Assembly: GCA_001662655.1 (NCBI GenBank)
Contig: KV460258.1
Length of the DNA stretch: 29,155 nt
Strand: one strand, 5' to 3'
DNA from: Pseudogymnoascus verrucosus
Lineage: Eukaryota
Position numbers and translations under genes: made by a program. Under the pieces are notes generated by a model. That model searched no databases. It was not told the origin of the DNA and was given only the letters and a program-made list of their open reading frames with translations. This document shows positions 2,698-26,325 of the stretch, in pieces (the first letter of the stretch is position 1; the number at the start of each line of letters is the position of its first letter).

Positions 2698-4225
2698 TTA
2701 AGCATCGACATCATATTCCACATCTGTCCGTATCACATATTTTGCACCCTTCCTGACCCCAGTTCCTTCATGTAGCAATGCCCCATTCGTCTCTCCGTGC
2801 GGAAAAACGGCTACGCTACCCATGACTGGCTTCATTGGATACGCATTCATTGTCCCTTCCTTGACACTTGGGAGGAAGAACGTAGTTTCTCCGCCTTCGA
2901 AGTCGTCATTCAAATATATTAAGAAGGTGAAGAGTGACGATTGCCTCTTAGTGGGAGGCGATGAATCATACTGATATACCCCGGCTGGCGAAATTCCCGA
3001 GGGTGGCCATGCTCCATCTTATTAAAGTCAGTTTCTTACCACACCAAAACCAAGAAGAAAGTGAGAAATGCTTACCGATATGGCATCTGTATTCCGCGCC
3101 AGGAACATATCTGTACACCCTGAACCTCCTATTCAAACCTCTCACTCTCTTTCCACCAACATTTTCTGGTACATACTCTCTCACTCTCTCCCACAGCCGA
3201 TCATGAAATGCTTGATCAATGACCCAATAAAAGTTATGCGCCAAAACGCTTACTTCTCCACCATCGTCTCTCACTGGTGCATCGGGAATAAACTCAACTG
3301 CCTCTCCGGCTGCAATGATATCCTTGCATTCTGTTGGCGATAAGACGTCTTTTATGAGTCCTAGATTTGGGACAATGGGATGAGAATGTCGACTTCGTGA
3401 GGGTCCAGGAGATGTGAGATGGACCGCGTTGTCCTCCGAGGTGTATAGGATTGCAGGATGGTGATTTGGCGGCTTCCTCTCGGGGCCAGGAATCGTCTCG
3501 AGGATCTTGAACTTGGCCATAATAGCCTCTGGCTGTGGTATCAAGCTCCTATCCAGAACCTTTGCATAAACCGCTTCTGGAACATCCCCTTTCCTCATGT
3601 TCCATACCTCCTGGACACTGATCGGGTTTTCCCCACTCTCAATTTTTAAGTTGAGATCTGTCGGCCCTGTAACCCTCAGTATCGCATCCATAACTTTCAA
3701 CAGCTCAATCTCGCTGTCACTCCTCTCGCCGACTGCGCTCATCCCATCCACGCGCCCACTCAACCCAGACAGAACGTCTAAGTCCCGAACCCATCGGCAC
3801 AGAGCACCCAGCTTGGGTTGTTGCCCCTTAACCCTCATCTCTGCCAATAATACCCTCGCCTCTGTCAACTTCCCGTCTACAAGAGCCGCGCTAATCCGGC
3901 TCGTCAAGTTTGCATCCGCCGCCGTGAGCAGGCCAGTTGTAGAAGCCTGTTTAAAATCGTAGATGGCAACACGAAGATCTTTGCATGCTTTACTTTTGAT
4001 CAGATTCGGATACTTGCTGAGGGCCTGCAGCGTCTCGATTGTGATTTCAAGCTCATCTTCGGAAACTATACTGGCGATGTTCTTCGGTTCGATAAGAGAA
4101 GCGTCGGTGTCTGTCGATGGTGGGGTGACAGCACCTGCTGCCGTCGGCAGAGAGGTCTTCTGGAGTTTATTCGGTACATTTTGTGCACCATTGTGCTTGC
4201 GCTTTGCGGATTTGGATTTCGCCAT
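2698..4225 (-). CDS. 2-oxoglutarate/Fe(II)-dependent dioxygenase (prolyl-4-hydroxylase-like C-terminal domain), ~489 aa. Exons 4225-3076, 3017-2698
   Basis: Removing intron 3075-3018 (GTAAGC...CTGAC...AAG) joins 'RFRVYRYVPGAEYRCHID' to 'GAWPPSG...FTFLIYLNDDFEGGETTFF...LLHEG...KYVIRTDVEY', restoring the HxD...H iron triad and a 2OG-binding basic motif. Confidence 0.88.
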
Positions 4226-4526
4226 TGTATCTGTTGAGAGTGGTACACAGGAAGCTGCGGGGTTGGAATATTTGGGCTTGAGGGCAACTGTGGGAAGGGG
4301 GCGGTGAAGCTATCCGTGGCAGAAAAGCGATTGTGGTGAAGGCGGTGTGGTTATTTCTGGCAGAAAAGGTTCACATCAAACATAACTGCAACTTTGGCCT
4401 CTCTCGAAATCAAGCATAACAAACGGTAATTTGGTTGTGAAATAGGGTCGAGGTACTGGATATAGGATCTGAATATTTTGATATTCCAGCCATAAAGCCA
4501 TTTCGTGAGAGGCCAAAGTTGCAGTT

Positions 4527-22074: not shown

Positions 22075-23060
22075 CCCTCAAGTCTAACGACTCAGTCCAT
22101 GAACTTCGAGCAAGGCCAGTATCAAAATATCACATACAACATAAGATAGTAGAGACGATCGCGAAGAACAAGGGGATAAACAAAGAAAACGAGGGGGGAA
22201 GCTTGATGTCGTACATATACGAGGCGGAAGCCAATCCGCAAACTCAGCCCTGGCAAGAATCAACTCCGCGGTGTAGGGGGAGTTCCCAACTATTATTTGA
22301 AAGGATACGAGTAAGCGTTCCGCAAATCGCAAGGATAGCAATCCATGTGCGAATGGGGTCGCACGCCCTCAGTAAACCCCTGTATATATCACCAAATACA
22401 ACATCAGGGGGTAATTAGTCCCTACATTAATAGTGCTAATATATAACTGTTGGTGATACAAGTAGGCAATACAAGTGCTCATCGGGATATGGTGGATAAT
22501 TGACAGAGAAGATATATTGGCAGCAAGCTTAGGATCGGTCCCCCGCACGCTTTGATAGGAAAACTAGGGTCTACAAGAGCGGGTCTTTTCTAGGTGTGGG
22601 GATGGAAGGAATGTGGCGGCTTTTAGTACACGTCGGTTACTGCAAATAGAAAGGGAAAAGGATCTATATACCTGGCACGACGACCCTATCACCACCCATT
22701 TTCAGCATTCTAACGAAGTTCCAGCATACTCTTTTCTAAGAGCATATAATTAACAGCGTCAAATATCTGTCATAGAAACCACAAACGACGCATTTGATAT
22801 ATCGCGAATTAGAATTTGGGTACCAGTCCTTACCTCCCCGAAGGATCGAAACACCAAAGCTGCTGCCTAGGATTAGCTCATCCTCCTTGGGAATAGGGCA
22901 GGGATGCTCAGCCTCCCAACACGGTGCCTGAGCGTCCGTGTTTAGCAAATCGTGGCACATCCAAGCCACCAAGACTCGTGGACTATGCATTGAAGGATGA
23001 GAGCGTTGTAGGATGAAAACCATGGTTGAGGTTACGTTAATTATTTTTGTAGTTTTCTTA

Positions 23061-23081
23061 TTTTTTTTTTTTTTTTTTTTT
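23061..23081. repeat. poly(T) homopolymer, 21 nt
   Basis: Uninterrupted T run read directly, inside an AT-rich patch at ~23038-23125. Confidence 0.9.
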
Positions 23082-23462
23082 AAGAAAAAACGTCTTCAAA
23101 TATAATATAATTTCACTTTTATTCTTCATAGAGGCCCATAAACTCCAGTTCCCAACAATGCGCCTTTGGCGGAAATGAAGCAATACAAAAGCTGGTCTCA
23201 ATAGCGTAACATCCTGAAAAACCATTCCCATTCCACCAAACCCCAATCCCCGAGAGTCTGAAAGAATTACCCCTGCAGTTTTGGCGTTCAGGCAGGGCTT
23301 AGCTAAAGCTTACCTGCCCTTGGTGTGGAGCGGCTTGGAGTGCGGGGTTATTGGAGCACGCCAGCGCCTAACACCGAGATCTCCACCTAACAGCTCATCC
23401 ACTAAACCTCTATGACTCTCAATCTATAACCAACAATCCCAAACTCCATCAGAACTACCAAC

Positions 23463-24204
23463 ATGAGTGAGTCTCCCATATAATCTTATACCGGTGGCCA
23501 ACTCCCCGGCGCACCTTCCAGCCACCCACTCTAACAACCCCGCAGCCTCCCCCACCCCCCTCAGCATAGGCTGCCTCCTCTTCCCCGGCTTCCAAGCCCT
23601 CGACGTCTTCGGCCCCCTCGACGCCCTCAACGTCCTCTCCTACACCACCCCCCTAACCCTCTCCATCATTGGCGCCTCCCTCTCTCCCATCTCCACCCAC
23701 CCCGCCTCCCAACCAACCGCCATCGGCCAAACCATCGTGCCCACACACACCTTCTCCTCCGCTCCCCCCCTCGACGTCCTCCTAATCCCCGGCGGCTACG
23801 GCACGCGTGGCTCACCCCCTGGTCTCGAGGAAGCGATTGATTTCATCCGCTCCCGCTTCCCGGAGCTCAAATACATGATCACGGTCTGCACGGGCTCGCG
23901 ACTAGCCGCAAGAGCGGGTGTCTTGGATGGGCTGCGCGCGACGACGAATAAGCGCGCGTGGTTGGATACGAGGGAGATGGCGCCGGGGGTGAAGTGGGTG
24001 GCGCATGCGAGGTGGGTGGTGGATGGGAAGTGTTGGACTAGTGCGGGGGTGAGTGCGGGGATTGATGTTGTGTTGGCGTGGGTGGAGGAGGTGTATGGGA
24101 GGGAGAAGGCGGGGGAGGTGGCGGGGGTGATGGAGTATGAGAGGCATGAGGATTCGAGGTGGGATCCGTTTGCGGTGGCGAATGGGTTGCCGGTGGATGA
24201 GTAG
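23463..24204 (+). CDS. DJ-1/PfpI family protein, isonitrile hydratase-like subgroup, ~220 aa. Exons 23463-23466, 23546-24204
   Basis: 'LLFPGFQALDVFGP', 'DVLLIPGG', 'TVCTGS' (nucleophilic Cys), 'GLRATTNK', 'WTSAGVSAGID', 'MEY'. ATGA|GTGAGT...CTAAC...GCAG|CC gives MTSPTPLSIGC in frame; the ORF-track start at 23467 is the intron donor. Confidence 0.88.
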
Positions 24205-24402
24205 GGAGTTGGTGGTGGTAAGGGGTGGTTTAGTATAGGTAGTTTGTAGGCATAATCTGAAAGTCTCTCCTCACGTTTACATATAATCCGATGTGAAGGT
24301 AATCTTTTGTGCCAATTAATCAAATCTCAAAAGTATAGCCGTCTAAGTCTACATAAATTACAAGATTATCAAACGCTTTCAAGCAGAAGCCTTTCCCAAC
24401 TG

Positions 24403-26325
24403 TCAGGGAGAGCTCAGCCACGGATCCTCATACAACTCCCTCGCCGTCGCCCTCTCCTCCGGCAGCCATTTCAGCATTCTCCGTGCAAACTCTATAAAAA
24501 GCCGCTTATCCTCTCCCTGGAGCGACGGCGTCTTGCTCTCGGACGTAAAGTCCTCAGGTGACATCAGATGCGGATGCCTAAATTCGCCTAAGAGTGCTAT
24601 TATAAGCATGGAACCTTTAAAAGGAAGGGACGATGGGGGGGCATATAGACAAGGAAAGCGCGATGCGGAAGGGATGACTGATGAGAAAGGAAGGGCGCGA
24701 CGGGAGGCAACGAAACCTAGAGATGGAAGGCACGATGGGGATTGAATTGAGTCTGTAAAGGGAAGGCGCGACGGGAACCGAGGGAGTCTGCGGAGGGAAG
24801 GCACGATAGAGAAGGAAAGAGCGATGATGAGGAAATGACTCTGCCAATAGAAGGTACGATGGGAGTAAATCGACTCTGAATATAGAAGGCGCGCGGGAAG
24901 GGAGGGAATCTGCTGAAGGAAGGCGCGATGAAAACGAAAGGAGTGTGAAACGGAAGGCACGATGGGTGATAAAGGAATATATCCGGCCGGGGGATAAGAA
25001 ACATATATACCTTGCTCTGAACTCAAACTGGCATAAACCTCCTTATTTGCCCGCCCCAGCAGTTCCACAGGCGGCGGTCCCAAAATCCGAATCATCTGCG
25101 CAAAATGCACATGGCGGTCGTATTGGTTTTCAGGACCAACCCCGTCGAGGAGCGAGATGTCCTCGAGGAGTTCCCAGAGCTGTTGATAACCCATACGTTA
25201 GCCAACTAGACGACTCAATTATCGTATTTACTCCCCGGCATCTTCACTTACCACCATACCAAGGTTCCAAATATCAGCACTATTCGTCCAGCCTGCGCCG
25301 AGCAGGACCTCGGGTGCCGCGAACTGTTCAGGCTGGATATCATGATAATGCAACCTCGTCGTGTCGCCGAACACAGCAGCACCGAAGTCACTTATCTTCA
25401 GCACCCCCGTGCCTTTGGTGAAGCGCCCAAAGTCGGGCTGAGATTGATATACGCGCCGTCCATCACCCTCTTTGTACGGGCCAGGGTTTTGTATCTGTGC
25501 CTTGACATACTCAACAATGACCAAGCTGTCCTCAAAGCCAATCAAGAAGTTATCCGCTTTTAGGTCTACGTGGTACTATCAGCAATTCATTCCCCCAATC
25601 TACAGTACAAACCGAGAAGGCAATAAACTTGCCGGTATGTATGATATGGCACTCAGAGTGAAGGAAATCAAGCCCCTTTAAAATGAGCTTCAAGAAAGCT
25701 TTGAGAATAGGTGCCGACAGCCCGACAGTCCCGAGATGTCGTCCTAGCATCCACAAAGGTTCCCTTAACGGCTCAAAAACCAAACATAGGTGCTCACCAA
25801 ATGGCCCCATAACGACGAAAGAGTCCTCAGCCACTCTAACATACTTACCCCCTTCATCTTCTAACTGTATCTGAGAAATATGACGAGGCATCTGCAGCTC
25901 CTCATTAGCCGACTTCCAGTCCCCCTCAAAACAATTGGTGATTTTCAACGCCATATATTTACTCGACTGCCAAGGCCATCTATATGCAATTGGTATCATG
26001 ATGCCCACCCAAGACTACGAGGTACAGACCTGTTCATCTCTTCGGCCAGCCAGACCGTTGAACCTGTCCCAAATCCGAGTTTTGAAATGATTTGATACTT
26101 GCCGTTGACGGTCTCGCCAATCTGGGCTGGGTAGAAGCGTTTCGGGTCATAATCCGGGTTTTTCTCCTCCTCGAGAAGGGTATCAGCGGGCAACAAATGG
26201 GCTACTGCATTCGGGTGCATGGTCACTCGAGATGAGATGCATCTCCGGGACATCGTGGTGAGCGCACGGGACCGGAGCATCAATTGACACGTGTGGAACT
26301 CGCACAGACATCGAGGAAGCGACAT
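24403..26325 (-). CDS. CMGC SRPK-like serine/threonine protein kinase (fungal expanded family), ~436 aa. Exons 26325-26030, 25979-25633, 25565-25252, 25179-25011, 24587-24403
   Basis: Spliced product has 'LEEE...FYPAQIGETVNGKYQIISKLGFGTGSTVWLA', 'MALKI', 'HLCLVFEPL', 'IIHTDLKADN', 'ISDFG', 'IQPEQFAAPEV', 'DIWNLG', 'MLKWLPEERATARELYEDPWL'. Exon sum is 1311 nt. Requires a GC-AG intron and a 423-nt intron; start codon uncertain. Confidence 0.85.
24623..24966. repeat. Degenerate tandem array, 11 units, ~35-bp period, core GGAAGGCRCGAYGGG, in the last kinase intron
   Basis: Cores start at 24623, 24653, 24689, 24725, 24761, 24796, 24814, 24849, 24884, 24918, 24952 (spacings 30, 36, 36, 36, 35, 18, 35, 35, 34, 34). 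Confidence 0.88.

Follow-up and report, generated by a model that had tools for sequence, protein, structure and literature searches.

The last intron of a predicted SRPK-family kinase gene in Pseudogymnoascus verrucosus contains eleven tandem units of about 35 nt, which form an array of the minisatellite type whose core is conserved. The array is non-coding, arose in situ, and has been inherited, and a core of about 12 nt within each unit changes more slowly than its surroundings. The slow change of the cores between species suggests that they are in use, probably in unspliced RNA. Here, the window is the whole stretch of 29,155 nt that was analyzed; coordinates are those of the window, and "sense" refers to the kinase gene, which lies on the minus strand.

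By sequence similarity, the host gene is an SRPK-family kinase. Exon 3 of the window gene matches Pkinase, and a close homologue, P0006, matches the SRPK1 chain 1wak_A (E 1.1e-45, residues 55 to 438) and has the full-length similarity to SRPK1/2 and Sky1 that marks the SRPK family. The annotated protein P0001 from Pseudogymnoascus sp. VKM F-103 is 98% identical over the exons and joins ...SSEQG|EFRHPHLM... across 24588-25010; six further homologues (alignment A1) are also contiguous where intron 4 interrupts the window gene. A DJ-1/PfpI gene on the plus strand converges on the kinase gene. The parts of the gene that bear on the array are as follows.

24403-26253, minus strand: predicted SRPK-family kinase gene, beginning either at 26220, the start used in P0001, or at 26253, the start used in P0016
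25980-26029, 25566-25632 (GC-AG), 25180-25251, and 24588-25010, minus strand: kinase introns
25011-25179, minus strand: kinase exon 4
24588-25010, minus strand: intron 4, the last intron, 423 nt, GT..AG, phase 1
24967-25010, minus strand: 5′ part of the intron outside the repeats, donor GTATAT
24588-24622, minus strand: 3′ part of the intron outside the repeats, branch-site-like GCTTAT and acceptor ...CTCTTAG
24403-24587, minus strand: kinase exon 5, including the stop codon

The initial annotation had set the 423-nt intron apart from shorter introns of about 49 to 93 nt, and the other three introns of the gene are indeed only 50, 67, and 72 nt long. Its non-repeat flanks, 44 nt before the array and 35 nt after it, together come to about 79 nt, and within the latter, positions 24588-24607 have 95% identity over 20 nt to the orthologous locus L001 described below. 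The X6 contigs (151 to 245 nt) run unspliced over the acceptor, their source being either DNA or pre-mRNA. The X4 run gave short paralogous pieces only.

With the core GGAAGGCRCGAYGGG and up to three mismatches, scanning both strands of the 29-kb window gave 12 matches, compared to 2.15 expected (shuffles: sd, 1.40; largest count, 5; 0/100 reaching 12). Nine of the 12 are on the plus strand within 24623-24966, and two weaker units, with cores at 24814 and 24884, are in register with the rest of the array. There are thus 11 core copies across this interval, all sharing one orientation, and 8 of the 10 spacings between them are 34 to 37 nt. The array and its cores are listed below.

24623-24966, minus strand: array, 11 units of about 35 nt, from sequence scans; on the sense strand each unit reads RTCGYGCCTTCC core, a few pyrimidines, CAGAsTC, and then about 9 variable nt
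24623-24637, minus strand: core 1; the plus strand reads GGAAGGGACGATGGG
24653-24667, minus strand: core 2, degenerate; variant common to P0002 and P0003
24690-24704, minus strand: core 3
24725-24739, minus strand: core 4, exact consensus
24761-24775, minus strand: core 5, exact consensus, CpG-intact form
24796-24810, minus strand: core 6, after which comes the 18-nt unit
24814-24828, minus strand: core 7, degenerate, GGAAAGAGCGATGAT; variant common across species
24849-24863, minus strand: core 8
24884-24897, minus strand: core 9, 14 nt, one base short; variant common across species
24918-24932, minus strand: core 10
24952-24966, minus strand: core 11, exact consensus; the earliest core in the transcript

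This layout agrees with the initial annotation, which had described eleven cores at a period of about 35 nt with one 30-nt and one 18-nt unit, a weak GA(G/C/A)TCTG sub-motif in about five units, and a purine-biased strand. The unit lengths are, in order, 30, 37, 35, 36, 35, 18, 35, 35, 34, and 34 nt; GAsTCTG is found in units 4, 5, 7, 8, and 9, with GAGTGTG in unit 10; and the plus strand of the 423-nt intron is 72% purine (G158 A148 T60 C57). The units lie head to tail at a constant period, as in minisatellites, and identity autocorrelation along the intron is strongest at lag 35 (z 5.4), with another peak at lag 18 (z 4.2). A gapless repeat finder recovered families that are 60 to 80% identical and spaced 34 to 36 nt, and a looser scan revealed a possible twelfth, decayed core within the unit 2 spacer. 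Tandem Repeats Finder (TRF) reported no array in the window even at a score of 30, which indicates that the array is very degenerate; at the same score it also reported none in L001 or in L041, a distant homologue. A higher-order repeat, with units 1 to 5 copied as units 6 to 10, was considered but not supported (lag 5 in the spacer matrix, 0.59 versus 0.55 overall), and only isolated pairs stand out, such as D4 at 80%. The motif may also resemble PAC/CGATG, SCB CRCGA, and the 3′ end of 18S rRNA; these likenesses were not counted as evidence.

A metagenome scan yielded 80 homologous loci, in 48 of which both flanking exons were found. Of these 48, 43 have an intron at the array site and 5 lack it (≤5 nt); its estimated length is 40 to 90 nt in 42 of the 48, with a median of 47 nt, and the one long case is L041, at about 215 to 227 nt. 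The window intron exceeds those of the homologues by about 340 nt, in keeping with the earlier proposal that an intron of about 60 nt had been enlarged by insertion or expansion. By this comparison, an intron has long stood at this position and is usually short; the array enlarged it in situ, as a lineage-specific expansion.

The array was also found in relatives. L001, from a more distant relative, is the orthologous locus in synteny, its DJ-1 neighbor being 85.6% identical over 589 columns. The 249 nt of its intron present on the contig hold 8 core-like elements (shuffle mean, 1.33; maximum, 5) with a period at lags 34 and 35 (z 3.5 and 2.7), giving about 8 cores in that partial intron versus 11 to 12 in the window. 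The intergenic region beside DJ-1 is about 480 nt longer in L001, yet the array remains in the intron. P0002 and P0003, which are database "proteins" from other genomes, proved to be open reading frames (ORFs) called through the orthologous intron; in frameshift-tolerant protein-to-DNA alignment they are collinear with every one of the 11 window units, P0002 requiring 4 frameshift steps and P0003 requiring 6. The array is also present in two closely related strains: X2, which is about 99.3% identical (21 differences and 4 gaps over 3,201 nt), and X3, at about 97%. None of the 12 indels listed for them lies inside 24588-25010 or changes the number of units. Judged by these alignments, at least three other lineages have inherited the array unit for unit.

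Inside the array, the 15 core columns have an average pairwise identity of 0.759 and the spacer columns one of 0.465; a contiguous-block permutation test gave no better than P = 0.017. Conservation is unevenly spread over the columns (sd, 0.274), 6 of which are invariant and 10 random-like, and under three uniform-rate histories this spread was reached by 0/2000, 0/2000, and 0.3% of simulations. The claim of the initial annotation, a conserved core among decayed spacers, thus holds against a neutral model of uniform rate. Aligned spacer pairs score 0.55 versus 0.51 for shuffled pairs, whereas cores score 0.77 versus 0.60, and a few spacer columns (A..GA.T..T) are still common among units. The spacers are near saturation and the cores are not; the spacing of 34 to 37 nt is nonetheless kept in 8 of the 10 units.

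Core and spacer were also compared between species, with codons of the two database ORFs serving as proxies, alongside one partial DNA orthologue. The numbers of identical codons were as follows.

Window versus P0002 and P0003 pooled, which are not fully independent of one another: core, 79/98 (81%); spacer, 54/106 (51%); P = 9e-6
Window versus P0002: core, 38/49; spacer, 25/54; P = 0.0013
Window versus P0003: core, 41/49; spacer, 29/52; P = 0.0027
Long ungapped runs only: core, 57/68; spacer, 38/75; P = 3.6e-5
P0002 versus P0003, 15-nt core: core, 28/33; spacer, 18/35; P = 0.004
P0002 versus P0003, 12-nt core: core, 23/25; spacer, 22/42; P = 0.001

As a reference, 102 of 120 codons are identical in exon 5. 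The comparison of P0002 with P0003 was added because the cores had been defined on the window. At equal substitution rates, both classes of codon retain the amino acid equally often, so codon degeneracy does not confound the result, and d is about 0.10 substitutions per site in cores and about 0.27 in spacers. In the roughly 12-nt core (sense RTCGYGCCTTCC), change is slower by a factor of about 2.5 to 3 than elsewhere in the unit, at a resolution of about 3 nt, and the slow block occupies unit columns 2 to 12. Lineage-specific core changes number 2 in the window, 3 in P0002, and 1 in P0003, indicating no bias towards the window branch. The core variants specific to units 2, 7, and 9 are common to all three lineages, which argues that gene conversion since the split is not the cause. 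The GAsTCTG sub-motif, which is conserved among units, shows no extra conservation between species relative to the rest of the spacer (16/32 versus 23/51; P = 0.82).

From these rates we infer purifying selection on the cores, for which there is reasonable statistical evidence of constraint. The reading that we favor, with somewhat less than even confidence, is that an old in-place expansion left constrained pyrimidine-rich cores that would act in the pre-mRNA. The sense strand of the intron is 72 to 73% pyrimidine in the window and in L001, compared to 39 to 52% in the other introns of the kinase gene. The long intron of L041, which represents an independent expansion and is without the core, has a comparable sense-strand pyrimidine content of 70%. 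An RNA-level role is favored because the pyrimidine bias lies on the sense strand and recurs in this second long intron. In the pre-mRNA, the cores may serve as a series of pyrimidine tracts or of protein-binding elements, occupying the place where fungal introns usually have polypyrimidine tracts, and they could keep the oversized intron spliceable or set the fraction of it that is retained. Every unit reads, on the sense strand, as a pyrimidine run followed by CAG. An array of complete mini-introns was rejected, the units being without a 5′ splice site, as were tandem copies of the 3′ splice-site region, the CAG-bearing sub-motif not being conserved between species.

The array might instead be a neutral relic, an old minisatellite too degenerate to slip, whose slow cores reflect local mutation-rate differences or sampling noise. 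This explanation is unlikely, although it deserves serious consideration: TRF cannot detect the array, the spacers are near random, structure, family, and second copy were all not found (499,758 nt having been searched for copies), the unit number is unchanged in X2 and X3 among the indels listed, and the sample of core codons is small (33 to 98). However, uniform-rate models are rejected within the array, and the three between-species comparisons agree, one of them being free of ascertainment. Furthermore, the cores hold CpGs and are G+C-richer, so their mutation rate should be higher, not lower, and the spacing is maintained despite saturated spacers and between-species indels (7 and 10 steps). 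A young neutral minisatellite, which the initial annotation had already disfavored, fits poorly with the non-uniform divergence along the unit and the persistence of the array in relatives. The slow cores fit its suggestion of a selected array of binding sites, which could lie in DNA as well as in RNA. At the DNA level, the G-rich strand GGAAGGCRCGAY would be a repeatedly occurring site to which a transcription factor or chromatin factor binds, and the array would be an enhancer or silencer within the gene, for the kinase or for a neighboring gene. The regular spacing suits such sites, and the between-species rate evidence fits them equally, being alike for DNA and RNA and thus unable to separate the two roles. 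The recurrence of the sense-strand pyrimidine bias in the independent L041 expansion points, however, to a property of the transcript strand, and the array has stayed in the intron in L001 beside a longer DJ-1 intergenic region. On balance, we regard a DNA-level role as rather doubtful.

Two other origins raised by the initial annotation, an intron-encoded multi-unit structured RNA and the subterminal array of a mobile element, fared poorly. A short intron that had received a mobile element, now a remnant (for example an introner-like element or the subterminal repeats of a DNA transposon), would account for the extra length of some 340 nt and for the intact 5′ and 3′ intron parts on either side of the array. 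However, the intron position is ancient, the array sits at the same place in syntenic L001, and no terminal inverted repeats were found; there are only two weak inverted pairs (12 to 14 nt, 79 to 83% complementary), both of which link the array with exon 5. By eye, the sole flanking direct repeat belongs to the repeat unit itself. A scan of 499,758 nt with the unit profile matched the orthologous L001 (2 matches) besides the window array (9) and nothing elsewhere; at least two cores were found only in L001 among the 80 loci (470,603 nt), and in a short-word BLAST of the intron nothing but L001 rose above 13-mers expected by chance. When the intron by itself was used in a translated search against 1.84 billion representatives, there was one match, P0017, an unrelated 61-aa tandem-repeat protein, and a word-indexed search with the array part returned P0003 again and nothing else, with no match for the second reading frame. 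Insertion of a mobile element is therefore very improbable. Even less can be said for a non-coding RNA locus, whether of intron-encoded small RNAs, of an antisense transcript, or of a retained, translated insert. It could draw on the fact that intron 4 of the window keeps the reading frame and has no stop codon, and on a weak SNORD47-like match on the plus strand (E = 10), but this match reaches 15.7 bits where the gathering score is 50, and all four Rfam matches (E 0.78 to 10) are far below their gathering scores. The RNA folds no better than shuffled sequence on either strand (sense z +0.46, with 67/100 shuffles folding at least as well; antisense z +0.22). All three sense frames are largely open, as expected from the 72% pyrimidine content; the frameshifts of the orthologues P0002 and P0003 relative to the window show that the array is non-coding, and its period, 35 nt, is not divisible by 3. 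Overall, the expansion, its lack of youth, the slow cores, and the exclusion of a CRISPR stand from the earlier interpretation, whereas the structured RNA and the mobile element do not.

If the cores do act in the pre-mRNA of this SR-protein-kinase paralogue, the 11 conserved C/U-rich copies could offer multivalent binding to an RNA-binding protein that belongs to the splicing machinery and is possibly an SRPK substrate itself, such that removal or retention of the intron feeds back on kinase output. This more specific proposal is speculative and improbable as it stands; if true, the array would be a lineage-specific device for splicing autoregulation made from a minisatellite. The closest analogy for the proposed multivalent protein binding is the differentiation control element (DICE), described in PMC8034617 as a CU-rich element in the 3′UTR of ALOX15 that is bound by HNRNPK/HNRNPE1 and as a repeated sequence in the title of a reference therein. 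Both are tandem C/U-rich elements on the transcribed strand (72% pyrimidine with 11 to 12 cores in the array). However, DICE lies in a mammalian mRNA 3′UTR and controls translation, whereas the array lies in a fungal intron.

Polypyrimidine tracts are found in the 5′ region of fungal introns, with several tracts per intron and up to nine predicted in Fusarium, according to PMC5677156, which cites Kupfer et al. 2004. The ordinary tracts it describes are 6 to 25 nt long and highly divergent among species, whereas in the array one specific 12-nt sequence is conserved and present in 11 copies across 344 nt. If the cores were generic pyrimidine tracts, exchanges of C and U would be tolerated, but the exact core sequence is kept. 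Introner-like elements, as described in PMC3609843, likewise give unusually long fungal spliceosomal introns of repetitive origin. They occur there in hundreds of copies, at new intron positions and with stable predicted structures, whereas the array is at an ancient position and unstructured and another copy was not found (80 loci, 499,758 nt).

Classical G-rich minisatellites, or intronic VNTRs, are built from units some tens of bases long that follow one another head to tail and have a short, conserved core. The array resembles them in its purine/pyrimidine strand asymmetry, its G-rich core of about 12 to 15 nt, its location in an intron, and its origin by in-situ duplication. It differs in being very degenerate and silent in TRF, with spacers near random, in its unit-for-unit orthology across species without length change in close strains among the indels listed, and in having a core conserved among the units of one locus and between species rather than among many loci. 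The likeness to a CRISPR array, a repeat-spacer look with a roughly constant period, is superficial. CRISPR arrays have near-identical direct repeats of 23 to 55 nt and unrelated spacers and occur in prokaryotes, usually with cas genes; a CRISPR was rejected here, as in the initial annotation, on account of the eukaryotic host, the spliceosomal intron, cores of 15 nt that are about 77% alike, and partly related spacers. A literature search on intron tandem repeats in Pseudogymnoascus and on conserved-core minisatellites in fungal introns found no such array.

Filamentous fungi splice by intron definition, and their introns are short. A constrained 12-nt element reiterated in a 423-nt intron would represent a natural, compact array of intronic cis-elements and would permit a direct test of whether tandem repeats have been recruited as regulators of fungal splicing or expression. 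The intron also bears on annotation: ORF finders call stop-poor, pyrimidine-rich introns as proteins, and P0002 and P0003 are artefacts of this kind in public collections.

In the array core, the variable positions R and Y are both sites of CpG transitions (window 24690-24810); of their possible combinations GC, GT and AT are seen, but never AC. Across units 3 to 6 the states alternate between GC and AT, and the same segment, 24690-24810, holds a two-unit repeat of 71 nt with 72% identity (D6, from a gapless repeat finder). This alternation and the 71-nt repeat hint that array growth passed through an older dimeric stage. The lag-18 signal, together with the 18-nt-spaced cores in L001, the syntenic orthologous locus of a more distant relative, hints at a half-unit that would be older still.

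Within the minus-strand stretch 24403-25197 of the window, the array-bearing intron is in frame and without stops over its 141 codons, and its composition leaves all three sense frames largely open. As a result, ORF callers have deposited spurious "proteins" reading through orthologous introns; the database proteins P0002 and P0003 are of this kind.

The public model of the kinase in Pseudogymnoascus sp. VKM F-103 (P0001) seems to be wrong at another intron:

25566-25632, minus strand: kinase intron 2, 67 nt, GC donor (GCAAGT...TAG), branch site CTGAT

The DLKADNF motif is encoded by P0005, by P0006 (a close homologue matching SRPK1) and by the window's own frame, whereas P0001 lacks it and reads "GKFIAFS". 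This GC-donor intron seems to have been misread in P0001.

At the same position as the array-bearing intron, L041, a distant homologous metagenome locus, also has a long intron (about 4164-4391, about 227 nt). Its sense strand is 70% pyrimidine, its periodicity is weak (lags 10 and 41), and it contains no copy of the window array's core. The long intron of L041 is independent of that in the window.

In L001 (433-1015), the spacer that separates the kinase gene from the convergent DJ-1/PfpI gene exceeds its counterpart in the window (24303-24403) by about 480 nt. Short segments of the DJ-1/PfpI gene (window 23574-23640, 23759-23804 and 24130-24175) also match other, longer contigs of sequencing runs X2, X3 and X4 at <90% identity; the matches probably reflect DJ-1 family paralogues in those genomes. 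Upstream of the gene lies a T-rich tract (window 23041-23082) of 29 T with interruptions.
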